From: an uncultured Acidobacteriaceae bacterium
Lineage (GTDB): Bacteria; Acidobacteriota; Terriglobia; Terriglobales; Acidobacteriaceae
Assembly (NCBI GenBank): GCA_963765995.1
Contig: CAVXYT010000023.1
Location: 6,995 to 70,994 of the forward strand
Reading direction: 5' to 3'
DNA length: 64,000 bases
Part shown: one piece after another, positions 12,791-32,206 of the stretch
Layout of the letters: each line of letters begins with the position of its first letter
Numbering within the stretch: position 1 is the first letter of the stretch
Translations under genes and position numbers: made by a program
The notes under the pieces: model-generated
Told to the model about the DNA's origin: nothing
Databases searched by the model: none
What the model saw: only the letters and a program-made list of their open reading frames with translations

Positions 12791-13395
12791 CGGAATATCG
12801 TAGAACATTTGGCGCAGGGGTGTGAAAACGCTCCATATTGGGAGTTGATTTGCTTCCGCTCGGACACCTTGTCAACAAAGAGAGGGTGGAGATTTTCGAT
12901 TAAGTTGTTGAATCAACTAGAGAACCGAGTGGTTATTTATGTTGCAGGAAATTTCCTGGAGATTCGTTAAGCTAAGAACAATCAACGAGGAAAAACGAGA
13001 AATGAGAGGACAGGGGAGCGAGGACGAGGCTTTCCTGGTATTTTTCGGACCACTTCCGCGGTACGCGAGCGTGGGGAGAGACTGAAAACACTTTCAGAGG
13101 CCGGATGGACGTTTTGTCTTATTGAAAAGCTGCGGATGGAAGTGTCGGAAGCAGCCAAAGGCAGACGGGCATCTGACAGGATCTGGAAGAGATCAAAACA
13201 TTTTCCGAGTTGACGCGGAGCTGCGAGAGCGTTGCAAGGCGGTTTGGAGTGAAGGAAGAAGCCGCTGAGTCTTCGCGGCGCCAGACGAGACCAATTCGGC
13301 GAATGCAGGGGTGGTTCCTACAAGGAATCACCCCTTTCTCTTTCTACGGAGAAGAGTGCAAGACCGTGTAATGGCGGGACGGGATTGGCGGAAAC

Positions 13396-13749
13396 ATGGT
13401 GTTGGCAAGGACGAGGCAGGCGGCCGGAGGCAGGCCGCATGGAACAGGGATGCAGGCGAAAACAGTCAGCCGCGGAAAAGCAAAGATGGCGGCGGAGGCG
13501 GACAAGGCCCTGGAAGACAACAGCAGCGAGATAACGAAAGGCTTGACCGAGAACGCGAAAAAGGGCAACGCAACGTGCACAAGGCTGCTACTTGCGCTCG
13601 CGGACGGGCTCATCAACTGCGAGAACGAAGTCGTAATGGAGCAGCTTTGCAGTTATGCCGAGAAGCTGGCTTTGGAGCCGGAATGGACTGGCGAAGAAGA
13701 CGATCTGGATGCGGAGACGAGCATCAGAGAACGCGAAGCGAAGGGTTGA
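13396..13749 (+). CDS. Small helical hypothetical protein at the head of the phage-like cluster (small terminase or regulator candidate)
   Basis: 117-aa charged helical ORF, co-oriented with and just upstream of the cluster; function is inferred from position only. Confidence 0.55.
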   Translation: MVLARTRQAAGGRPHGTGMQAKTVSRGKAKMAAEADKALEDNSSEITKGLTENAKKGNATCTRLLLALADGLINCENEVVMEQLCSYAEKLALEPEWTGEEDDLDAETSIREREAKG

Positions 13750-13822
13750 CGATTTGGCCCGCGTGAACAGTAACAGAGATGAACAAAGGCAGGTTCTTCC
13801 CCGGAAGAAAGAAGAGAGGCAG

Positions 13823-16800
13823 ATGAAGCTCACAAATCACAAGTGGTTGCGCGTCAACGGCTGGATTGGACTGTTGTTGATTGAGTTATGCCTGATGTTC
13901 CTGGGGTTAGCAAGCAAGGCCCCGGCGCAGGCGATCAGCACAACGACAGTTCAGGGAACGGTGTATCTGGCGAACGGTCAGCCTGCCACAGGAACACTCG
14001 TGGTGAGCTGGCCATCGTTTACCACGGCGAGCGGTCAGTTGGTGACGGCCGACAGCACGACGGTGACGATTGCGCCGGATGGATTTGTGAGCGTGAATCT
14101 GGCGCCTAATCTGGGGGCGACTCCGGCGGGGTTGTATTACACGGCGGTCTATTACATGAGCGATGGCTCGACTAACACCCAATACTGGGTGGTGCCGACG
14201 GGGACGCAAGCGACGCTGGGGCAGGTGCAGGCGCAGTTGATGCCGGCGACGCGGGCCGTGCAGGCAGTGAGCAAGGCCTATGTGGATCAGGCGATCGCGG
14301 AGCTAACGGGAAGCCTGCTGACGGGATCGGGAGGGACGCTGAGCGGGCCACTTACATTGTGCTGCGATCCGACGCTGCCGTTGCAAGCGGCGGACAAGCA
14401 CTATGTGGACGCAGCATCTGCCTTAGCCGTGCCATTGACAGGCGCGACAATGACCGGGCCGCTGACGAGCGTGAAATTAGGGGCTTTATACCAAGTGGAC
14501 CAGTTTTCCGGATCGGATTTCGGAGCCAAGCTGAGTGCGTGCCTGAGCGGGCTGAGCTCGACGAATGGCGGTACGTGCGATGCGCGCAATTTCACGGGCA
14601 CTCTGTCGATGGGATCGAACCTGACGATTTCGACGGCGAATGCGACGGTTCTGCTGCCTTGCGCGACGATTTCGACTGCCAATCAGTTGATGGTGGCGGC
14701 GGGCACGAGGAATGTGTCGCTGCGCGGGTGCGCATTGCGCGGGGCGAGCACGGCGAGCGGGAGCCAGGGCGGCACGGTGTTTCTGTATTCGGGAACGGGC
14801 GCGATGGTGCAGGTGGGAGACCCGACCTATGCGGCGGACACGATGGGTTTTCATCTGGACAATGTGGTGATTAACACTACGGCTTCGTCCAGCGGAGCGG
14901 CGCAAGGACTGGCGGCCTATCGCACGCAGGAGATGGACCTGGAAAGCTTGTATTTTCTTGGTAACTCGAATCAGACAGGAATGACACTGGACGGGACTGG
15001 GAATTATACCGGGGGAACGTTTCTCGACAACGAATTCAATGGCTACCAGACGGCGGTGAACGCCATCGGGCACCAGATATCGAATCCTGCCACGACAGAT
15101 TGGGTAAATGCGAGCACGTTTGTGCGGTTGCACATCGACTGCCCGACGAGCGGGGGAAGCCCGATCAGCGGGAGTTATGGGATCAACCTGCAACAGGGCG
15201 ATGGAAACACGTTCACGGGCGGAGACGTAGAGGGATGTTCGACGGCATTGCACCTGGGAGCGAACGCGCAAAACAACATGATCGTTGGACTGCGGAACGA
15301 AAACTCGACGAACCAGGTTGTGGCGGATGCGGGCAGTTCGTATAACAACTGGATGACCGGGGGAACGATGTTTACCGGTCAGTTGACCGACAACGGCACG
15401 CGCAACAGCTTCCTTGATGCATTTCACCGGAGTTTCAATGGCCTGAACGGCGATTGGTACGGAAGTCAGAAAGACGCGACGGTCACCAACCACTATCGCC
15501 TGGGGACAGGCGCAGGAAACGAGCGCGGCCTGCTGGACCGCTATCAAAGCGACTACGGCTACCGCTGGACGCTAGGCTTGAGCGACGCGACGGCCGGCGA
15601 GCAGTTTTACCAGATACTGGACGAACTGAACAATGTGTACCGGCTGTCGGTGGGCCAGAATAACAACGGGCAGTCGAGCACGAATAACCAGACGGTGATC
15701 AATGCGGCAGGAACCGGCGCTGTGGTGTTGAACGGATCGAACAACGCGGGGACCGGCGGAGTGGTGATCGGGTCGGGCGGCGCGAGCGAGACGACCGTGG
15801 CGACGATCGGCAACACCGGAAATGCGCAGTTCAACGGGACGCTGCAGGTGGGGGGCGCGTCAACTCTAGCGGGGACCGCAACAGTTAAGAACCAGGCCGA
15901 CGCGGAGATCGATGCGACGCTGTGGGCGGGACTGACGACGAGCCAGAAAGAGTCGTTCATTTACAAGGACTGGAACGGCAACAGCCAGTGGTACATGGTG
16001 AAGGACGGGAGCAATAACTGGGCGCTGAATTCGGCCACAGGCGGATTGGACAGTTTCAAGGCTTACCAGAGCGCCAACAGCGGCGACACGTACATCAACA
16101 CCTCGAACGCTTCCGGGGTCGTGCGCATCAACTACGAGACTGGATCAGGAACTCAGCTAAAAGTATATGGGGGGAACAGCAGCACTCTTTATGCCTCCTT
16201 CACGGGCGCGGCATTGATTCAATTTCCAGGGCTTGCGGCGAGCAGCGGCCACAACTGCCTACAGATCGATAACTCGGGCTATGTCACGAATACGGGGACG
16301 GCCTGCGGCAGCGGAAGCACCAGCGGGACGGTCAACACGGGGACCAGCGGGCAGATTGCCTATTACAGCGGAGCAGGCACAACCCTATCCGGCACAAACA
16401 CGGTTTCCGTAACGGCCGGAGGGACCGGGGCTTCCACGGCTTCAAGCGCGCTGGCGAACCTGGGCGGAGCATCGCTCGCAGGGGCGTCTTTTACGGGACC
16501 GGTGAGTGTTTCGACAACACTGTCTGTAGCAAACAACGCGAGCATCGGGCCGCGGTACGATGTGACGAACTCCGCGTTTGGCGCAGTAGGCAACGGCTCG
16601 ACAGATGACACGGCGGCGATTCAGGCAGCTTTTGACGCTTGTTATCACGGCGGTGTTGCTCCCTACGGCGGCGTGGTTGAGTTTCCCGGTCCTCACAGCT
16701 TTGTGGTCTCCTCCACGATTAACGCGCACGATTCCTGCCAGGTGGAGGGGGTTGTGGGAAGCTCGACCGTGGCCAACGCGCCGGTTCGGGTTCTATGGAA

Positions 16801-19720
16801 GGGCGCGGCAGCGGGAACAGTTTCGACGATTACCGGATACAGCGTAGCAGCGGGCGGCATTGCAACCTTCACAGCCGCAAACAGCCTGACCGCCGGGCAG
16901 TACGTCGATATTGAGGGATTGACTACTACGACAGGCACGACAATGAACCGGCTCATCGCGCCGGTTCTGGCTGCCGGACTATCCACGACGCAGTTTGAAA
17001 TACAGGCGAACGCATCGGCGACGACAACGACATCGGATTCCGGCACTGCAACGACCGTCAACGTGCTTCTTGTCTTTGATTCCAGTGCCAGATACGAACA
17101 GTCCCTCAAGAATATGGAGTTTGCCCTGGCATCCGGCGCGACTACGGGGTCGCTGCAAGTAGACGTGTACTACGGTAGCCGCGTTGATACCGGAACCCAC
17201 GTTGAGAATACCTGGGCGGAGCAAGCCACGATGTATGGTTACTACTTTTCCGGCGGGGGCATCAACGTAGACTTCGACAAAGGCTGGCGGTGCGACTCTG
17301 CCGGGATATCCTGCATCTATTGGCGGCTGTCAGGAGGGGATTCCTTTGGAATAGCCAACGGAACGGCAGACAACAGTCAAGGCGGCACGATGACGCCGAG
17401 CGGCGGCCTGTTAATGGTGGATGGCGCTCCCTGCGTCAACACCTCGTTCCTAAATTTCGAGTCACGGAATGTGCTGTTTGAAGTGAACTCTACGATTACC
17501 TCTGGCCTGGGCATTTTTACGCTGTATGATTGCCCATCAGCCGCACAGAATTTTAACCTGAACCTGGAAAGCACGAGAGAAAGCATAGCTGCGGCATCCA
17601 CCTCCGGTTTCAATTTCCCGGCTATCGTCATGTCTCCGCCGAGTGATTCAAAGCTCACCTTGAACATGGCCGATGGTGGATTCTACAATGGCACCGCGCC
17701 CAACACAACCACAAGGTTTGTTGGGATTCCGGCATTGATGAGAGACGATATAGGAGACGGCCCATTCCTGAGTTATGCTCCTTCGTTCAATAGCCTTGCG
17801 GCTGCTAATAATGCTCCGGAACCGATCTCTCTGATAGGCGATGTTGAGTTCAGCCAACTCTGGCAGCACGGGGTTGAGGCATCGGCATTTCTATTCTCAG
17901 ATACAGCGTACGCCGCGCTTCCCAACGGGACAACGCTGTACTCCGGCCAGGTGCTCGCGCCCCCAGCCTACTGGAACGGGGCCAACGGGAAGCGGTATGC
18001 TCTCGACGTTGTATACCAAACCGGCACGACCGGTTCCCCAAACGCCGGAGCTACCACCTGCACGGATACCGGCTATACAGGAACCATGACCTGCTCCAGC
18101 GCCACGGACTTGTCAGCCGGAAGCGTACTCACGCTAGGGAGCGAAAGCCAAATTACAGTTGCATGGGTGGACAACACGAATCCTTCGGCTGTTATCGTGC
18201 ATAACACAACTTCTTTGCCGCACACAACCAATTCGTCTGCTACTGCGTTGTCCTTCACCGCGCCGGTGCTGGGACCAGAGATTCAAATGCCGACGAAATC
18301 CGCAGCCGCGCCTTCTGCTTTGGCATGGTCGCAGGGAGACTTCGAGCAGAACTCCAGCGCGGTGGCGAATGGTATCTGCGGATGGGTCAATGTGTCAGCC
18401 GGTACGCCGGGAACCTGGACGGCCATTCCGTGCGCCAATAGCAGCGGGCAGATTACAGCGTCTCAGATCGCGCCCGCGTCTCTTCAGGGAACCGATTCAA
18501 AGATTCTTACAGCCGGGACAGTATCGGGCACGGGAGCAGCTCTCTGCACAGACAGCAATGGAGGCGCAACTACTTCCGGCTGCTCCGGGGGCTCCGGGGC
18601 ACCTGCCAATACACCGTCCTGGCTTCAGTATCTTGGCAGCGGAGCGGATGGCTCGTATGAATACAGTTCTACCGGAAGCTGCTCGACGAGTCCGACACAT
18701 TGCGTGACAAGCTGCACTTCGTCAGCGCCGTGTTCGATGGCCGGCGGCGAAATGATCACTACTAATTTTCAAGTGGATTCCGGGGCGTACATCTATGACA
18801 ACATTGCCAGCACGGCAGGGCTAACCATTCATTCACAGGGAGCTTGCAACATCTACGGAACGATTCTGGTCAACGGAGCGAAGAGCACCTGGCCTGCCGG
18901 AAATAAAGGCGTCGGGGGCGGTCCTTCCGGCGGCTCAGGTGGAGGCACCGCGGCGGGTACGGCAGGAACCGCGACTTATCCTACGATTGCCAACACAGGT
19001 TTAGGGAACACATCTGGCGGCACAGCCGGGGCTGCAAGTGGCGGCAACGGTGGAAACGGGACCGCGCCGAGCGCAAATTTTCAAAGATCGGTCACGAACG
19101 CCGGAATTGGCGGAATGGATGGGATGTATCTCACTGGAGCAGCCGGGGTGCAGGGCGGAAGCACTGGCGGCGCGGGCGGTGAAGGTGGTCAAGGACTGGT
19201 TATGATGTGTGCCACGATGAACGGCACAGGCGGCGTCATCGACGCAAGCGGCGCTTATGGGATGCCCCCAGCCGCAAACTCGACTGGGGCAGGAAGCGGC
19301 GGCGGCGGCGGAGTTGTGCTTCTATCCTCGCAAGCTGCTGTTACAAACTGGCCCACAGTTTATGTTGCGGGCGGACCTGGGGGATTGGTCACCGTGCCGG
19401 AAGCCCTGGCAACAGGCGGCGCCTGCACCTCTCAGCCGAAGGCCACTCTCGGCGTTACCAGCGGGGCGTTCAGCGGAACCTGCACGGTGGCGCAAGCGGG
19501 GGCCGGTTGCGGCACGGGCGCAGGCATTACATGGAATATTGCCGGTGGCGGCGGAACGGCGGGAACGGCTGTCATCAACCCAACTTGGAGCAGCGGCACA
19601 CTGGCAAGCTGCACGGTAACGCCGGGTACAAGCACAGGCTATACGGCAGCGACTTACACGACTGCGGGAAAGGGCGGCGACGGCGCGACAGGCTGGTACG
19701 CGGAGTTTGCGGGGTGGTAG
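13823..19720 (+). CDS. Giant tail fibre/tailspike-like protein with two predicted beta-helix regions, Gly-rich C-terminus and N-terminal signal-like peptide
   Basis: About 1965 aa from ATG 13823; fibre-type SKAYVD and AADKHYVD motifs; pectate_lyase_3-type FGAVGNGSTDDTAAIQAAFD; Asn/Gly/Thr-rich repeats; GG-rich tail. Confidence 0.7.
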   Translation: MKLTNHKWLRVNGWIGLLLIELCLMFLGLASKAPAQAISTTTVQGTVYLANGQPATGTLVVSWPSFTTASGQLVTADSTTVTIAPDGFVSVNLAPNLGATPAGLYYTAVYYMSDGSTNTQYWVVPTGTQATLGQVQAQLMPATRAVQAVSKAYVDQAIAELTGSLLTGSGGTLSGPLTLCCDPTLPLQAADKHYVDAASALAVPLTGATMTGPLTSVKLGALYQVDQFSGSDFGAKLSACLSGLSSTNGGTCDARNFTGTLSMGSNLTISTANATVLLPCATISTANQLMVAAGTRNVSLRGCALRGASTASGSQGGTVFLYSGTGAMVQVGDPTYAADTMGFHLDNVVINTTASSSGAAQGLAAYRTQEMDLESLYFLGNSNQTGMTLDGTGNYTGGTFLDNEFNGYQTAVNAIGHQISNPATTDWVNASTFVRLHIDCPTSGGSPISGSYGINLQQGDGNTFTGGDVEGCSTALHLGANAQNNMIVGLRNENSTNQVVADAGSSYNNWMTGGTMFTGQLTDNGTRNSFLDAFHRSFNGLNGDWYGSQKDATVTNHYRLGTGAGNERGLLDRYQSDYGYRWTLGLSDATAGEQFYQILDELNNVYRLSVGQNNNGQSSTNNQTVINAAGTGAVVLNGSNNAGTGGVVIGSGGASETTVATIGNTGNAQFNGTLQVGGASTLAGTATVKNQADAEIDATLWAGLTTSQKESFIYKDWNGNSQWYMVKDGSNNWALNSATGGLDSFKAYQSANSGDTYINTSNASGVVRINYETGSGTQLKVYGGNSSTLYASFTGAALIQFPGLAASSGHNCLQIDNSGYVTNTGTACGSGSTSGTVNTGTSGQIAYYSGAGTTLSGTNTVSVTAGGTGASTASSALANLGGASLAGASFTGPVSVSTTLSVANNASIGPRYDVTNSAFGAVGNGSTDDTAAIQAAFDACYHGGVAPYGGVVEFPGPHSFVVSSTINAHDSCQVEGVVGSSTVANAPVRVLWKGAAAGTVSTITGYSVAAGGIATFTAANSLTAGQYVDIEGLTTTTGTTMNRLIAPVLAAGLSTTQFEIQANASATTTTSDSGTATTVNVLLVFDSSARYEQSLKNMEFALASGATTGSLQVDVYYGSRVDTGTHVENTWAEQATMYGYYFSGGGINVDFDKGWRCDSAGISCIYWRLSGGDSFGIANGTADNSQGGTMTPSGGLLMVDGAPCVNTSFLNFESRNVLFEVNSTITSGLGIFTLYDCPSAAQNFNLNLESTRESIAAASTSGFNFPAIVMSPPSDSKLTLNMADGGFYNGTAPNTTTRFVGIPALMRDDIGDGPFLSYAPSFNSLAAANNAPEPISLIGDVEFSQLWQHGVEASAFLFSDTAYAALPNGTTLYSGQVLAPPAYWNGANGKRYALDVVYQTGTTGSPNAGATTCTDTGYTGTMTCSSATDLSAGSVLTLGSESQITVAWVDNTNPSAVIVHNTTSLPHTTNSSATALSFTAPVLGPEIQMPTKSAAAPSALAWSQGDFEQNSSAVANGICGWVNVSAGTPGTWTAIPCANSSGQITASQIAPASLQGTDSKILTAGTVSGTGAALCTDSNGGATTSGCSGGSGAPANTPSWLQYLGSGADGSYEYSSTGSCSTSPTHCVTSCTSSAPCSMAGGEMITTNFQVDSGAYIYDNIASTAGLTIHSQGACNIYGTILVNGAKSTWPAGNKGVGGGPSGGSGGGTAAGTAGTATYPTIANTGLGNTSGGTAGAASGGNGGNGTAPSANFQRSVTNAGIGGMDGMYLTGAAGVQGGSTGGAGGEGGQGLVMMCATMNGTGGVIDASGAYGMPPAANSTGAGSGGGGGVVLLSSQAAVTNWPTVYVAGGPGGLVTVPEALATGGACTSQPKATLGVTSGAFSGTCTVAQAGAGCGTGAGITWNIAGGGGTAGTAVINPTWSSGTLASCTVTPGTSTGYTAATYTTAGKGGDGATGWYAEFAGW

Positions 19721-19793: not shown

Positions 19794-21401
19794 ATGGCGG
19801 CACACAGCGCGGGGCTTGTGCGGGAGCGCGTGGACAGGTTTCTCAAACTTGAGAAAGATATGGCGGAGAAAACAGAAGGAAGCACGGCAGTTGCGGGGGA
19901 GCCGCGCTTGTGCCCGGAGAAGCTCAACCGAGAGGAGCTGGAGCGATTTGGGCGGATTCTGGATTCCCGGCCGTCGAGCATGCGGGGGCGGACGGTGGGC
20001 ATGGCGCTGGCCGAGCAGCTTTTGCAGGTAAGGACGCGGGATGGGAGCACGGCGCCGTTGAAGGCGAACGCGGTGCAGCGAGCCTTTGAGCGGCGGCGGG
20101 GCGAGCGGAATATCGTGCTGAAGGCGCGGCAGATGGGGTTGACGACCTGGGCGGCAGCGCGGTTTTTTCTGAAGACGATTACCCGGCCGGGGACACTGAC
20201 GCTGGAGGTTGCGCACACGCAGGAGGCGGCCGAGGAGATCTTCCAGATCGTTCACCGGTTTGTGGACTGGCTACCGGAGGAACTGCGCGAAGGTCCGCTG
20301 CGGACCTCGCGAGCCAATGTGCGGCAGATTGTGTTTCCGGAGATGGATTCGCAGTACAGAGTGGTATCGGCGGGCGAGCGGAACGCGGGGCGGGGATTGA
20401 CGGTGCAGAATCTGCACTGCTCGGAGCAGGCGCGCTGGCCGGGCGATCCGGCGGAGACGCTGGCGGGATTGCGAGCGGCGATGGCGCCGGGAGCGGAGCT
20501 GATTCTGGAGTCGACGCCGGAAGGAGTGGGCGGATGCTTCCACGAGGAGTGGCAGAAGGCCGGCGAGACGGGGATGGTGCGGCACTTCTTTCCCTGGTGG
20601 ATGGAGCAGCGGTACCGGGCCAGGGCGGCGGATAAGGCGAGCCTGACGAACGAAGAGCGGGACCTGATGGCGCACCGCAAACTGGACCTGGAGCAGATTG
20701 GTTATCGACGGCAGATACGGGCGGATTTTCGCGGGCTGGCGCGGCAGGAGTATGCGGAAGATTGCGAAAGCTGCTTTCTGGCCAGCGGGGATTCGGTCTT
20801 TGAGCTGGCGGCGATTGAAGCGCGGCTGGCAACATCGACCGAACCGATTGAACGGCGGCAAAATGGGGAGTTGGAGATTTGGCTGCCGCCGCTCAAGGGC
20901 AAACAGTACCTGGTGGCGGTTGATCCGGCCGGCGGCGGGAGCGAGGGCGACTACTCGGCGGCGCAGGTGCTGGAGCTGGAGACGGGGCTGCAGTGCGCGG
21001 AGTTTGCCGGACACATGGGGGGTCTGGAGCTGGCGCGGCTGGTGACGGCGCTGGCCGATGAGTACAACCAGGCGTGGCTGGTGGTGGAGAGGAATAACCA
21101 CGGGAGCGGCGTTCTGGCGCTGATCGAGACGGCGTGCGGTTACGGGAAGATCTACCGGCAGGGTGGGCAGGCGGGCTGGCTGACGACGTCGGTGAGCCGG
21201 CCGGCGGCGCTGGGGCGGCTGAATGCTGGGCTGGTGGAGGAGCCGGAGCGTTTTCAGAGCCGGAAGTTGCTGGCCGAGTGCCGGAGTTTTGTGCGCCGGC
21301 CGGACGGCGGGAGCGGGGCGCGGCCGGGGACGCATGACGACCGGGTGATGGCGATGGCAATCGGGCTGGGGGCGCGGGCGGAGTTGGTAGGGAAAAGCTA
21401 G
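19794..21401 (+). CDS. Terminase large subunit
   Basis: Walker A IVLKARQMGLTT, Walker B LHCSE, ESTPEG coupling motif, nuclease YLVAVDPAGG..DYSA and HDDRVMA. Confidence 0.92.
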   Translation: MAAHSAGLVRERVDRFLKLEKDMAEKTEGSTAVAGEPRLCPEKLNREELERFGRILDSRPSSMRGRTVGMALAEQLLQVRTRDGSTAPLKANAVQRAFERRRGERNIVLKARQMGLTTWAAARFFLKTITRPGTLTLEVAHTQEAAEEIFQIVHRFVDWLPEELREGPLRTSRANVRQIVFPEMDSQYRVVSAGERNAGRGLTVQNLHCSEQARWPGDPAETLAGLRAAMAPGAELILESTPEGVGGCFHEEWQKAGETGMVRHFFPWWMEQRYRARAADKASLTNEERDLMAHRKLDLEQIGYRRQIRADFRGLARQEYAEDCESCFLASGDSVFELAAIEARLATSTEPIERRQNGELEIWLPPLKGKQYLVAVDPAGGGSEGDYSAAQVLELETGLQCAEFAGHMGGLELARLVTALADEYNQAWLVVERNNHGSGVLALIETACGYGKIYRQGGQAGWLTTSVSRPAALGRLNAGLVEEPERFQSRKLLAECRSFVRRPDGGSGARPGTHDDRVMAMAIGLGARAELVGKS

Positions 21402-26008: not shown

Positions 26009-26045
26009 CTCAAGCAACGGCCCCATGGAGGGGGCGGAGAAGCCT

Positions 26046-27014
26046 ATGAACGCAACCTTTGCAGACATTCACGCGGCAGCAGACTATATCGGGCCGGGCG
26101 CTATCGAAGTTCCGTTGTATCAGACCGAAATTTTCGACATCTGCCGGCGTTCGAGCCCCTTCGGGCAGCGCATCAAGCAGGTTCCGGCGACCGGGCATCC
26201 GTCGCGGTTCTTCGAGGAGACGGCGATTCCGAATCCGGGAACGGCCGGCTTTGTGAATCCGCGCAGCATCGCGCCTACGGTGGTAAGCCCGACGCGCGTG
26301 GAGCGCAGCGTGCCGCTGAAGGCAATCGTTTCGCAGATCAACTACAACCTCTTCGACATCGAGCTGGGCGACCAGCAGAAGCAGTTTGCCTATCTCCAGG
26401 CCAAAGACCTGGTGGATACGGTGAGCGGCGTGATGGTGGCTCATGACGTGGCCTTGTGGAACGGCAACGACACCAGCCTGAGCTCGCCGACGACCACGCA
26501 GTACATGGGCGTGATTCCGCAGATTGTGGCGGGCGGCCTCACGACGACCATCGGCACGACGGCATCAATCGTGGATGGAATCAAGTCGGCTGTGGCGCAG
26601 ATGGTAGCCAATAACGGCTTCCATGTTCGGCCCACGGCGATCTACGCCAACCCCGTGCTGCTGGACCTGATCGACCGGGAGATGAAGACCGAGTTCAACG
26701 TGGTGCTGAATACCGACAACATCACGGGCGGTATTCGGGTGAAGATGCTTTCGACGCAGGCGGGCGATCTGCCGCTGATTCCGGACTGGAGCCTGAGTTA
26801 CACGGGCACGCCGGGCTCGGGCACGGCGGTTTTGCCGGCCTACATCGTGACCGAGGATCTGATCGAGTACCACTGGCTCGGCGATCCGACGCCGCGCATC
26901 TTCCAACTGGGACTGCCGAACTCGCTGACTTACCAGTATGTCGCGGTCAAATTCGGCGCGCCGGTGGTGAAGGGCGCCAACTACGCGCACTACCAGGTTC
27001 TGGTGGACCGGTAG
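26046..27014 (+). CDS. Major capsid protein (HK97 fold, SU10-like)
   Basis: 322 aa, beta-rich; DVALWNG, PTAIYANP, STQAGDLPLIPD; syntenic position portal-protease-scaffold-capsid. Confidence 0.8.
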   Translation: MNATFADIHAAADYIGPGAIEVPLYQTEIFDICRRSSPFGQRIKQVPATGHPSRFFEETAIPNPGTAGFVNPRSIAPTVVSPTRVERSVPLKAIVSQINYNLFDIELGDQQKQFAYLQAKDLVDTVSGVMVAHDVALWNGNDTSLSSPTTTQYMGVIPQIVAGGLTTTIGTTASIVDGIKSAVAQMVANNGFHVRPTAIYANPVLLDLIDREMKTEFNVVLNTDNITGGIRVKMLSTQAGDLPLIPDWSLSYTGTPGSGTAVLPAYIVTEDLIEYHWLGDPTPRIFQLGLPNSLTYQYVAVKFGAPVVKGANYAHYQVLVDR

Positions 27015-28865: not shown

Positions 28866-29840
28866 ATGGCGACGACTTGGTTTTCGGCTCCCGCACCGGT
28901 GGCGCGGCGGGTTCGAGGGTATTTTGCGCCGGTGAACCGGACGGTGCAGACGCCAGTGCTCTTCGACCCGGCGGAGCAGGGCAGTTTCAGCCTGAGCGCT
29001 CCGCCGGCTCCATGGATCAGCCTGGGTTGGATTCAACAGTTCACACGCAAGCAGGGAAGCAAGACCGCCGCTGTGTTGACGGGCATTCCCGCTGGAACGC
29101 TGGAGCAGGTGCGCGAGACGCTTGAGGCGCAGGTGAGCTTTGAATTTCTGAGCTGGACCAAACTGACCATGGCTCTGGCGACGGGCTCGCAACACATGAA
29201 CCTGCTGGCTCCCGCAAGCGGAGCGACTCTGGCGGCGGATGGAGCAACGGCTGCCGCGGCAGTTACGGTGCTGAGCGGATCGACGGCTACATCCATCGTG
29301 CTGGCCTCGGCCGATGCGGCTACTTTTTCTGCTGGTTCGATCATTGCGCTGGACGCGGATTACACGGGGCAGACCGGATATGTGGGCGCGCCTGTATCTG
29401 GAGCGTATGTGCGCACTGCATTAACGGATGTAAATTACATCCGGCGCGTGACCTTTAACGTCGCATTGGTGTCTGCGGTGACTTCCACCGGCTTAACACT
29501 TGCCGAGCCGTTACCGGGCGGAGCTCCTGCGGCCGGTTCCAGGTTGCAGGCAGTCACAGGATTTGTGGATCGCGAGGGCGGCTGTTTCTATCAAGAGTGG
29601 TCGGCGCTGTTTGTGATGGAGGGCAGCCAGGGGGAACGGATCTTCTTCCACTATCCACGGCTGCAGACCATGGCCAGCGCACAAGAAACCGCATTGCCGT
29701 TGGACGGCAAGCAGAAGGCCGGGCTGGCGCGGGTGTTGCTCAAAGGCCAGTTTCTGGCGCTGCCCGTGACCGATCCTCTGGATGGGGAGCGAGTGGTCTG
29801 TTACCGGAGTTTCCTGCCCGCGGCACACGCTCTGGTGTAG
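28866..29840 (+). CDS. Putative tail tube protein with inserted domain
   Basis: Beta-rich N- and C-terminal parts (WISLGWIQQF, QVSFEFL, RIFFHYPRL) around an Ala/Thr/Ser-rich insert; synteny. Confidence 0.5.
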   Translation: MATTWFSAPAPVARRVRGYFAPVNRTVQTPVLFDPAEQGSFSLSAPPAPWISLGWIQQFTRKQGSKTAAVLTGIPAGTLEQVRETLEAQVSFEFLSWTKLTMALATGSQHMNLLAPASGATLAADGATAAAAVTVLSGSTATSIVLASADAATFSAGSIIALDADYTGQTGYVGAPVSGAYVRTALTDVNYIRRVTFNVALVSAVTSTGLTLAEPLPGGAPAAGSRLQAVTGFVDREGGCFYQEWSALFVMEGSQGERIFFHYPRLQTMASAQETALPLDGKQKAGLARVLLKGQFLALPVTDPLDGERVVCYRSFLPAAHALV

Positions 29841-29890
29841 GCGAGTCGGCAAGTCAGCACAACAGCAAGTCAGCAGGGCAGAGAGTCACG

Positions 29891-32206
29891 ATGAAGATCA
29901 CGATCAACGGGCAAGACTACACGGCCGCGCTCGATGCAGTGCGGCCGTTGACGATCGAGCGAAAGCTGAACGCGCCCTCCCTGTGTCAACTGTGTCTGAG
30001 CCTGCCAACCAACGGAAGTTTGACGTCTCCCCTGCGCTATCAGTCTCTCGCCGTAGTGGGAGACGACGGAACATATTATTTTACGGGGTACATCGCGGTA
30101 AGTCCTCTGCCGGAATATGCAGGCTTTGCGATGGAGGGCCCGCGCTATCGGATTGCGATTCAGGCTTTGAGCGACGAGCTTTTGCTGGACCAAAACCTGA
30201 TGCCTCCCAGTACTGGCGCAACGGGAGAAAGCGCGGGGACGCTGATGACGGCGCTGGTAGCCCACGCGGGAGGCGCCGGGCTATCGACTCTGGGGCTTTC
30301 GCTCAGCGCGGCGGTGAGCAACTTTGCCCCCGACAAGGGCGCGCCGTGGAGCAAGAGCGCCGGACAGGTGGCAAACATGGCGCGGGCCGCGTATCGCGCG
30401 GTCAATGGAGCGCTCACAGCCTCCTCTGTGCCCGGCACGGTGCATCCACTGAATGAGACGGACGGCAGCTTGAACCTGGCAACCCTGGCCTTCACAGCCA
30501 GCGTCAAACGCGCTCTGGCGAACGATGTGACGGTGTGCGGAGAGCATGAGCCGGTTGCTTATGTTACCGAATACTTTCTGGGTGACGGAGTAACAACACA
30601 GTTTTATCTGGCGCAAGATCCGTTCTTTCCCGCCACGTCCAAGTCCATCATCATCCGCGAACTCTTCAACGAATCGCAGATCAACCAGTGCGTGTGGGGA
30701 GTTACAGGCGGGGCAGGTTACCTTACGCTGGGAGCCGGCGGGCTGGCGATAAACGGCGGCAATGGAATCGACGGGGACACGCTGCTCGCCTGGCTTGACC
30801 CTGTGGAGATGGGCGGAACTCTGCTGCTGGAGGCTGTGGGAGTAACTCTTGCACTGGGCAGCACAGGGGCATTGGCCGGCTTCTTTGTCGGCATGGACAG
30901 GCAGACTACGTGCGTCGCGGGCTTTCAGGTGACAGCGCAGCCAGGCACCGGGGCAGTCACATTGCAGCCACTCATCAATGGCAGTCCGGTGGGAACGACT
31001 TATGCGATCAATCCAGCCTATCAATACACACTGCGCGTCCGGGTGCATTGCCCAGAGAACGAACGGGCGCTGGCGATCTATCGCTCCTTTGGAGATAGCG
31101 GGGCAATTACCTCCGGCGGCGAGTTGAATGCGGCTCCGGGCATGGTGCAGATGGAGATCCAGCAGTTTGTTGACGGAGTGGGAGGGATGCCGGTAACTCT
31201 GTATGACGGAGCTATCTCCAACCTTCCCGCGGCTTGCAATGTGGTGGCGGCGAGCAGCATCAATCTGATTGGAACCATGCGTGCGCTCAACTTGACCAAT
31301 CTGGGCTCGGGCTGGGTGGTGAGCACACCGCCAAGCGGCGGTCCCTACACTCGGCGAGTTGGCACGACGGCCGAGGCGGCCGAGTGCTATCTGGAGCGCA
31401 CGGGCAAGGTGGTATTTTATACCGGGTATACGCCGGTAGCGGGCGAGCAGATTGCGGTGAGTTACCGCACTGTGGGCAGGGCAGTAGGTCGAGCCGTCAA
31501 CACCGCCAGCCAGGCGGCGTTGGCCGCGGCGGGAATGCCGACCGAGGCCGCGTGGATCGGCTCGGTGACCAATCCCCCGGCGCGCAGTTCCGCGGACTGC
31601 CGCAATGCGGCTCTGGTGATGGAGCAGGCGGCGGCCAGCGTGAGCGCGCTGTGGAGCGGCACTTACAAGGGGAACCGGTTGAGCTTTGCCGCCGATGTCT
31701 GGCCGGGCGATGCGCTGTTGCTGAACGCGCCTTCAACCAGCCTGGACGCGCAGGTGGTGGTGCGGACTGTCAAGGTGAGTTACAGCGCGAGCTATCCCGA
31801 TCTGGTGGAGTATGCCATTGTCTTCGCCAACGACTGGGCCGACGATCTGGCGATCAAGACCAGCGCGACGGTACCCGCTGATGCGTGGCTTCCGGCGCCG
31901 ATTGCGCCGACCGTGCTGGCGAATCTGAACAGCCTCACGGTGACTACGCTGAATGGAACCACGTTGACAATCAATGCCGGTGTTACTCCGCCCACAGGCG
32001 GAGGATTCGAGGTGCGGTTGCGAGACTTTGACTTCATGGCGGGCACGGACCCGGCGCTGGTGATGCGGTCGACAACTCCGGCCATGACTTTCTCTCGCAT
32101 CAGCGCCAACGACCGGTTCTATATCCGGATGTACGACGGCTCGACGCCGCCAAACTACTCGGAGTTTTCAACGGCACTATTCATCAACCTGCCGCTTGGA
32201 TCGTAA
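29891..32206 (+). CDS. Tail tip/baseplate hub-like protein with C-terminal beta domains
   Basis: MKITINGQDY...LTIERKLNAPSLCQL hub-like start, FLGDGVTTQFYL, 771 aa beta-rich; last large gene of the cluster. Confidence 0.6.
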   Translation: MKITINGQDYTAALDAVRPLTIERKLNAPSLCQLCLSLPTNGSLTSPLRYQSLAVVGDDGTYYFTGYIAVSPLPEYAGFAMEGPRYRIAIQALSDELLLDQNLMPPSTGATGESAGTLMTALVAHAGGAGLSTLGLSLSAAVSNFAPDKGAPWSKSAGQVANMARAAYRAVNGALTASSVPGTVHPLNETDGSLNLATLAFTASVKRALANDVTVCGEHEPVAYVTEYFLGDGVTTQFYLAQDPFFPATSKSIIIRELFNESQINQCVWGVTGGAGYLTLGAGGLAINGGNGIDGDTLLAWLDPVEMGGTLLLEAVGVTLALGSTGALAGFFVGMDRQTTCVAGFQVTAQPGTGAVTLQPLINGSPVGTTYAINPAYQYTLRVRVHCPENERALAIYRSFGDSGAITSGGELNAAPGMVQMEIQQFVDGVGGMPVTLYDGAISNLPAACNVVAASSINLIGTMRALNLTNLGSGWVVSTPPSGGPYTRRVGTTAEAAECYLERTGKVVFYTGYTPVAGEQIAVSYRTVGRAVGRAVNTASQAALAAAGMPTEAAWIGSVTNPPARSSADCRNAALVMEQAAASVSALWSGTYKGNRLSFAADVWPGDALLLNAPSTSLDAQVVVRTVKVSYSASYPDLVEYAIVFANDWADDLAIKTSATVPADAWLPAPIAPTVLANLNSLTVTTLNGTTLTINAGVTPPTGGGFEVRLRDFDFMAGTDPALVMRSTTPAMTFSRISANDRFYIRMYDGSTPPNYSEFSTALFINLPLGS

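Follow-up and report, generated by a model that had tools for sequence, protein, structure and literature searches.

A phage-type fiber gene with a conserved, predicted Sec signal peptide lies beside terL in a gene transfer agent-like cluster of Acidobacteriaceae

Introduction

Tail fibers and tailspikes are products of cytoplasmic assembly. Why, then, should a gene for a phage-type fiber begin with what looks like a signal for export? The question is raised by a 64,000-nucleotide stretch of DNA from an uncultured Acidobacteriaceae bacterium (contig CAVXYT010000023.1 of assembly GCA_963765995.1), the whole of which is called the window here, and in particular by an open reading frame (ORF) at positions 13823-19720 on its plus strand. 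The encoded protein of 1,965 amino acids (aa) begins with MKLTNHKWLRVNGWIGLLLIELCLMFLGLASKAPAQA and continues, past the putative cleavage point, with ISTTTVQGTVYLANG. A first-pass annotation, made from the letters of the window, described it as a giant double-tailspike protein with a signal peptide, placed before the terminase. A signal-bearing fiber would surprise a phage structural biologist. On comparative evidence, what appears to be new here is a conserved Sec-type signal on a tail fiber or tailspike within a domesticated cluster, an N-terminal "handle" domain shared across the family, and cysteines that come in pairs.

The gene and its start codon

The plus-strand frame is open across 13655..19720, and the reading frame and ATG that had been proposed for the gene hold up: GAGAGG is located 5 nt 5' of the ATG at 13823, and about 70 of 120 homologues share the identical start MKLTNHEW. 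The gene call in the public protein collection (P0002) begins at a TTG, 23 codons upstream of this ATG. The predicted signal would be lost if the true start lay downstream of the hydrophobic segment, as the first-pass annotation itself had pointed out. The first in-frame Met beyond the hydrophobic core is residue 112, which falls inside a conserved beta-sandwich, and such a start is therefore untenable; together with the shared homologue starts, this led us to rule out a downstream start codon.

A predicted signal peptide conserved in layout

13823..13933, plus strand: signal peptide of the Sec/signal peptidase I (SPase I) type, aa 1-37, predicted from sequence comparison

Our assessment of the signal peptide is comparative and draws on homologues of the fiber protein, namely 96 with a complete N-terminus, whose named members are Terracidiphilus, and representatives of 14 other genera. 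The window protein has an n-region at aa 1-13 with basic residues K2, H6, K7, and R10, an h-region at aa 14-30 (WIGLLLIELCLMFLGLA; about 17 residues with one embedded Glu), and a c-region at aa 31-37 with candidate cuts at APA-QA or AQA-IS (the last hyphen marking the cut). AlphaFold2 models a helix at aa 15-30.

Across the 96 N-termini, median values are +2 for the net charge of the n-region, 2.46 for the best 12-residue Kyte-Doolittle window (minimum 1.58), and 37 aa for the length of the segment that precedes the invariant STTTVQGTVY. With the cut placed after AQA, 79% of them have Ala at position -3 and 94% have A/G/S/T at position -1; with the cut placed two residues earlier (APA-QA; in general AxA-Q), 95% have a small residue at position -1 and 91% have Gln at position +1. 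The same succession recurs in all 14 other genera: basic residues come first, then a hydrophobic segment whose sequence is unrelated, then an A/G/S-Q junction that leads straight into the conserved TTTVQ(G/D)TVYRADG. The signal segment is also the least conserved portion of the protein (54% identity, versus 70-94% for the mature part), which fits the expectation for a signal peptide. We read this combination of variable sequence with a kept n/h/c layout and AxA junction as the likely product of selection for Sec/SPase recognition, and the basic N-terminus, hydrophobic core, and A-x-A site of the original description are thus upheld well beyond the window.

As to the type of signal, neither a lipobox (L-[AS]-[GA]-C) nor a twin arginine is present in the segment, and we therefore assign it to Sec/SPase I. 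A lipoprotein signal was rejected for want of a lipobox, and export by twin-arginine translocation (Tat), as in the Pantoea protein WceF discussed below, was rejected for want of a twin arginine. Exported host proteins of the same genome have a matching layout, with a signal ending in A/G-Q and then xTTGxIxGxV, and long signals occur among them; the home-made, genome-wide signal-peptide rule behind this comparison set cleavage sites too early and served only for host-protein layout and length.

A separate observation concerns the first 12 residues, MKLTNHEWLRAG (n-region, 13823-13861), which are much better conserved in the genus than the hydrophobic core that follows. N-regions are not usually conserved in this way, and the cause may be a constraint acting on the RNA or on the initiation of translation.

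Cysteines gained and lost in pairs

There are 32 Cys in the mature protein, arranged as neighboring pairs. Among 20 full-length homologues, 14 of the 16 neighboring pairs have both members present or both absent, and the pairs 1157/1164, 1519/1537, and 1620/1627, for instance, come and go jointly. The Cys count is even in every one of these 20 homologues (range 22-32), in 5/5 phage-encoded relatives, and in 11/14 homologues from other genera, or 36/39 in total. Paired gain and loss argues for disulfide bonds and hence for folding outside the cytoplasm; at the level of sequence comparison, the pairing suggests independent support for the export that the N-terminus predicts. Signal and cysteines considered together, the fiber protein probably matures outside the cytoplasm.

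A phage-type fiber with two beta-helix modules

Beyond the signal peptide, the gene divides into the following segments.

13934..14212, plus strand: beta-sandwich "handle", aa 38-130; predicted local distance difference test (pLDDT) about 75; the part of the protein conserved family-wide

14213..14497, plus strand: stalk with two KxYVD ... GGT(M/L)(T/S)GPLTL repeats, aa 131-225; its profile matches HylP tail fibers, and it includes a vicinal Cys-Cys

14498..15742, plus strand: beta-helix block 1, aa 226-640; best-conserved block in the genus (85-92% identity), with three invariant Cys pairs

15743..16537, plus strand: second stalk, Gly/Asn/Thr-rich, aa 641-905; invariant pair C812/C828; low-confidence, beta-rich model

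16538..17722, plus strand: beta-helix block 2, aa 906-1300; pectate-lyase-3-type N-cap YDVTNSAFGAVGNGSTDDTAAIQAAFDAC

17723..18679, plus strand: linker and small beta domains, aa 1301-1619; putative recombination breakpoints, from homologue coverage classes

18680..19720, plus strand: Gly-rich C-terminal tip, aa 1620-1965 plus stop; ends GWYAEFAGW

Whole-protein scans against Pfam, PHROG, and NCBIfam returned nothing; only segment scans and profiles gave signals. In the stalk, GGTLSGPLTL or GATMTGPLT comes after each of the motifs SKAYVD and DKHYVD, and a profile of handle plus stalk built from 15 genera (A3) matches the prophage hyaluronidase tail fibers HylP (3eka, 2yvv, 2dp5, and 2c3f; E 1e-5), although this match spans the GGTMTGPL...QAATKHYVD repeat and is only about 45 residues long. 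PHROG tail-fiber matches of the stalk are weak (E 0.013-0.028). One homologue of another genus bears the classical LASPALTGTPTAPT fiber repeat. Block 1 has no Pfam match. Block 2 scores 22.2 bits against PF12708, under the cut-off of 27, and several homologues have a precomputed PF12708 match; the block also matches tailspike PHROGs (E 7e-5) and, by motif in the PDB, 5olp. The Gly-rich tip had no match in family scans or PDB sequence searches.

AlphaFold2 monomer models, built with family alignments, predict a beta-sandwich at aa 40-130 and two beta-helices, at aa 220-510 and aa 910-1300, with pLDDT of about 75, 90, and 80, respectively, as well as a beta-rich Gly-rich C-terminal domain (pLDDT about 70); the stalk at aa 131-225 is modeled poorly. 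In Foldseek comparisons, the handle resembles small N-terminal or neck-fiber domains of phage fibers. The best PDB matches of the first half are the tailspikes of Geobacillus virus E2 ORF18, P22, Acinetobacter AS12 gp42, K5A lyase, and Sf6, and those of the second half are the capsule depolymerases KP34p57, AP22 gp54, and K1 lyase. The best E-values are 1e-5 to 2e-5, and the TM (template modeling) scores are low because the models contain several domains. Matches in BFVD are tail fibers, tailspikes, and pectate-lyase-superfamily proteins. The KxYVD motifs, the two beta-helix-like blocks, and the Gly-rich tail of the first-pass annotation are all recovered. By sequence and by model, we consider that the protein is a phage-type fiber with two tailspike-like modules, with "double tailspike" describing the fold only.

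Homologues of the fiber number more than 830, of which the named ones are Terracidiphilus. The N-terminal roughly 900 aa are conserved among them, and coverage falls into classes of about 20, 34, 45, 53, 68-71, 79-81, and 100%, which points to recombination at domain boundaries. At the other end, the family has at least 10 unrelated, interchangeable types of C-terminal tip. A conserved N-terminus with a mosaic distal end is, as far as comparison goes, the pattern of a receptor-binding protein. The aromatic C-terminal W had also raised the idea of an autotransporter, which we rejected given that the C-termini are swapped among these 10 or more types; the conserved end is the N-terminus, rather than a C-terminal beta-barrel translocator as in type V secretion systems.

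Linkage to terL in a domesticated cluster

19794..21401, plus strand: terL, large terminase subunit (phrog_2, E 4.5e-23); right-hand neighbor of the fiber gene

The placement before the terminase is confirmed in the window, where terL begins 74 nt downstream of the fiber gene, and a terminator scan found no terminator-like site between the two. After terL come a HipA-like/DUF3037 pair, the portal gene (PF04860, E 1.4e-52), and a head-tail adaptor gene. Within the genus, 22-23 of 25 genomes have each of fiber N-terminus, terL, and portal, as single copies in most; wherever contigs allow, the three share a contig and a strand and follow the order fiber-terL-portal. In the family (Acidobacteriaceae by source names), 118 of 151 genomes, representing 110 of 142 genera, have the handle, most of them as a single copy. 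The 14 other genera mentioned above were sampled as 14 single-contig or near-complete genomes. Within the stretch examined, all of them have the order fiber, terL, HipA-like, DUF3037, portal, g166, g329, adaptor, g161, g324, g869, with the HipA-like/DUF3037 pair undetectable in one. No other protein of the cluster is fiber-like or has a signal peptide.

This order is not the only one. The window itself can be divided into block A (fiber, terL, HipA-like, DUF3037, portal), block B (g166 to g324), and block C (g869). In two IMG/VR contigs (L050 and L051), the blocks are permuted, with g166 to g324 first, fiber to portal second, and g869 last (B-A-C in L051). In three other cases (L033, G017, and G020), the part from fiber to DUF3037 is far from the portal and tail genes. 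The fiber gene keeps its terL neighborhood in all arrangements seen, sometimes with one extra gene between, so that linkage to the cluster in relatives, including rearranged and split ones, is borne out.

The flanks of the cluster are ordinary host genes that differ between lineages. When IMG/VR was searched with the handle, copies of the same cluster were all that came back, and thus no phage ancestor with the handle was found. Judged by its distribution and gene orders, the cluster is a vertically inherited, domesticated phage-like set, similar to a gene transfer agent (GTA), with the fiber among its core genes, and it consists of movable, rearrangeable blocks rather than a phage late operon. 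The premise from which the first-pass annotation started, that fiber genes come last in the tail module, accordingly needs a qualifier for a cluster of this kind. Single in-frame stops occur in otherwise complete genomes, in terL and portal (G007:C1), portal (G001:C8 and G020:C4), or fiber (G005:C2); they may be local decay, recoding, or sequencing error.

The extra gene deserves a note of its own. In several genera, an additional gene of about 2.5 kb lies between the fiber gene and terL and itself bears a signal peptide. In one example (L045:6625-8925), its 766-aa product has a signal-like start, MLVWLLCGAAWG, then the cut and TTYYVDPAGSNANNG, and is typical of secreted right-handed beta-helix proteins.

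Signal-bearing relatives of block 1 in phages

Proteins 47-67% identical over block 1 are encoded on IMG/VR contigs, and every such relative with an intact N-terminus has a short classical signal peptide, e.g., AGA-Q, IQA-Q, or AYA-T (hyphen at the cut). The block-1 family is small (347 representatives at E<=1e-3 in an all-against-all search), and more distant, complete-looking relatives have a signal peptide in all cases inspected.

Several of these genes sit in siphophage tail modules whose other tail proteins are without a signal. Their positions differ: after tape measure, Dit-like, phrog_778, minor tail protein, and J-like protein genes (L022:9908-12859); after the central tail fiber J (E 1.6e-112; L016:9440-12400); between Dit-like and hub-like genes (L020:9803-12136); and between tail chaperones and tape measure (L026:7785-11600). 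No handle follows the signal peptide in the L020 and L022 relatives, which resemble soluble exported enzymes. Those of L013, L016, and L026 have a beta-sandwich, two of them also with collagen-like repeats, and are fiber-like.

Comparison with known systems

The nearest structural parallels are the tailspikes and depolymerases of tailed phages (P22 gp9, Sf6 tailspike protein, Acinetobacter AS12 gp42 and AP22 gp54, Klebsiella KP34p57, and Geobacillus virus E2 ORF18). They share with both blocks of the fiber a body of right-handed parallel beta-helix (by Foldseek), and with the fiber as a whole a conserved N-terminal anchor and exchangeable distal parts; the two modules on one chain resemble multi-depolymerase fibers. 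They differ in that they have no signal peptide and fold in the cytoplasm, whereas in the fiber described here a Sec-type signal and about 16 Cys pairs are conserved. The cysteines of the P22 tailspike are reduced in the native protein. Sequence similarity to this group is marginal, with PF12708 below its cut-off, and the fiber gene lies before terL, not in the tail module.

The hyaluronidases HylP1/2/3 of streptococcal prophages (2c3f, 2dp5, 2yvv, and 3eka), which have the stalk repeat in common with the fiber at profile level, are fibrous phage-fiber enzymes that cut host polysaccharide. Unlike the 1,965-aa fiber, they measure about 340 aa, lack a signal peptide, and belong to the virions of phages of Gram-positive hosts.

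An exported tailspike-like beta-helix is known from Pantoea stewartii, where WceF has a phage-type N-terminal head-binding-like domain and shows that tailspike folds are workable after export (PMC7949094). WceF has a Tat signal, is exported folded, is 736 aa long, and belongs to an operon for the biosynthesis of extracellular polysaccharide (EPS), whereas the fiber has a Sec-type signal, a far longer chain, and Cys pairs and is encoded beside terL and portal.

GTAs of the RcGTA type resemble the cluster in being vertically inherited, mostly single-copy head-tail clusters that can be split into several loci, and the window likewise contains no integration or replication genes. They also have polysaccharide-binding appendages (fibers and head spikes), as we propose for the fiber. 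RcGTA comes from another phylum, and the cluster here has an embedded HipA-like/DUF3037 pair. We know of no GTA fiber with a signal peptide.

Finally, secreted and signal-anchor-release (SAR) endolysins such as fOg44 Lys44 and P1 Lyz are phage proteins exported by host Sec that remain outside the cytoplasm up to the moment of envelope breach (PMC6116005). Unlike the fiber, they are lysis enzymes and neither structural nor receptor-binding.

What the fiber may do after its probable export

The first-pass annotation had pictured an exported receptor-binding or depolymerase protein that is attached to particles outside the cytoplasm, or else displayed on the cell to capture particles or remodel the capsule. 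The exported and cluster-associated part of this picture is strengthened by the signal architecture, the paired cysteines, and the adjacency to terL; whichever fate after export is chosen (particle attachment, cell display, or capsule remodeling), we infer it purely. Our preferred candidate, a tentative one to which we give rather less than even confidence, is a Sec-exported, disulfide-bonded receptor-binding or depolymerase fiber of a domesticated GTA-like particle system that joins its particles after envelope breach.

Under this proposal, the fiber would be made as a pre-protein and carried across the inner membrane by its Sec-type signal peptide, and SPase I would cut beside the invariant (Q)A-x-STTTVQG N-terminus. 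The long beta-structured chain would fold in the periplasm, forming about 16 disulfide bonds and perhaps a trimer. The N-terminal handle and HylP-like stalk would dock the fiber onto a conserved partner, and the conserved beta-helix 1, together with the swappable beta-helix 2 and tip modules, would bind or cut polysaccharide on the surface of target cells. The most conjectural step is the last one: since heads and tails are assembled in the cytoplasm, the fiber would reach the particle only after the producer's envelope has been breached. Some phage fibers and tailspikes can be added to particles in vitro, which makes docking after breach plausible.

Several points weigh against this proposal. 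The fiber gene lies at the packaging end of the cluster, outside the tail module, and a signal of 37 aa is rather long. A periplasmic fiber of about 200 kDa per chain would need a route across the outer membrane as well as a docking partner. The stops in terL or portal in some genomes mean that the particle system is not intact everywhere, and the signal-bearing phage relatives without a handle (L020 and L022) indicate that the exported form need not be particle-bound. Our literature searches returned no tailed phage or GTA reported to add a fiber outside the cytoplasm, nothing on signal peptides of tail fibers, and nothing on an acidobacterial GTA. Signal peptides are known on endolysins (PMC6116005) and some Porphyromonas phage genes (PMC10367356).

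The chief rival, which we regard as rather unlikely, accepts export and removes the particle: expressed along with the packaging genes, the protein would bind or depolymerize glycans at the cell surface or after secretion. It might thin or remodel the producer's capsule or EPS for particle escape, destroy receptors against re-adsorption to debris, or expose receptors on neighbors. The signal and Cys evidence speaks for export itself and so serves this reading as well. It is further helped by the varying tail-module positions of block-1 relatives (L020, L026, L022, and L016), handle-less ones among them, as is typical of accessory genes, by the second signal-bearing beta-helix gene between fiber gene and terL in several genera, and by WceF as a precedent for an exported tailspike-like trimer that trims its own EPS (PMC7949094). 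A handle that is family-wide and cluster-specific, together with a phage-fiber stalk, is nonetheless hard to explain in a free enzyme; the cluster is without another fiber candidate, and the polarity of conserved N-terminus and mosaic C-terminus is that of particle-anchored fibers.

We give little weight to an uncleaved signal anchor, by which the fiber would remain attached to the inner membrane while its body projects into the periplasm, perhaps offering a dock to assembling or incoming particles, and might be released later in the manner of SAR endolysins, the phage precedent for such release (PMC6116005). The long hydrophobic core of the window protein, with its embedded Glu, and the unusually conserved n-region MKLTNHEWLR would suit an anchor. 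The small residues at -3/-1 and the Gln at +1, however, are conserved in the genus and most other genera, and an anchor needs neither; the signals of the phage relatives are short, classical, and cleavable-looking.

Slightly less weight still goes to the converse, a particle-bound pool that is never exported: the fiber would fold and join the particle in the cytoplasm, and its hydrophobic N-terminus would serve as a buried docking element, a propeptide, or a device for membrane insertion at infection. This is the textbook route and, to our knowledge, the route of fiber assembly in every tailed phage studied, and the fact that the fiber is alone in the cluster in having a signal peptide agrees with it. 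Paired, co-varying cysteines in even counts point instead to an oxidizing compartment, and a segment of variable sequence and fixed n/h/c layout with an AxA junction fits Sec/SPase selection.

That the fiber gene is an ordinary host adhesin or glycanase gene merely beside a prophage remnant, as the lack of whole-protein Pfam, PHROG, or NCBIfam matches and an N-terminus resembling host exported proteins with carboxypeptidase-regulatory-like starts might suggest, is very improbable and close to refuted by synteny, given terL adjacency in 14/14 genera, in two block orders, and in split clusters, a stalk of phage tail-fiber type, and a C-terminus that is not a conserved anchor.

Wider meaning

A broader claim, which we advance as doubtful, would be that most sampled Acidobacteriaceae genera keep a host-owned GTA-like machine whose sole recognition fiber is Sec-exported, cleaved, disulfide-bonded in the periplasm, and joined to particles only after lysis and, with the phage relatives included, that receptor-binding proteins of tailed-phage-type particles regularly mature outside the cytoplasm, by an assembly route so far undescribed. 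If so, part of a phage-type particle would mature in another compartment in a major family of soil bacteria. Gene prediction would change, as a signal peptide now counts against a structural role, and expression work on depolymerases and host range would need oxidative folding. The question also matters for the understanding of GTA-like systems in Acidobacteria, an abundant soil group that is difficult to modify genetically; within the family the cluster is widespread, and several single-contig genomes contain it.

Neighboring genes and other features of the cluster

13307..13335, plus strand: strong terminator-like hairpin with a 13-bp stem and T-rich tail; ends the host unit upstream and forms the cluster's left boundary

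13396..13749, plus strand: small conserved gene for a 117-aa protein with a GGRPHG motif; immediate upstream neighbor of the fiber gene

To the left of the cluster, the flank in a 93%-identical relative consists of host genes on the minus strand. The small gene always precedes the fiber gene, and its product has an acidic C-terminus. In distant relatives, the 13396-13749 frame is kept at 31-38% identity and the overlapping 13311-13766 frame is not, for which reason the latter was dropped as an alternative. Family scans gave no family match for the 117-aa product, which is possibly a small terminase or a regulator.

Two genes further into the cluster are also of note. The hub-like g869 (29840-32206 in the window) probably starts about 80 codons later than its listed ORF, at the Met of MKITINGQDY; its product lacks a signal peptide, and identity between genera is 29-43%. 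The capsid-like g329 (26025-27014 in the window; 329 aa), which has no Pfam or PHROG match, is the most conserved gene of the cluster, with 70-82% identity over 14 genera.

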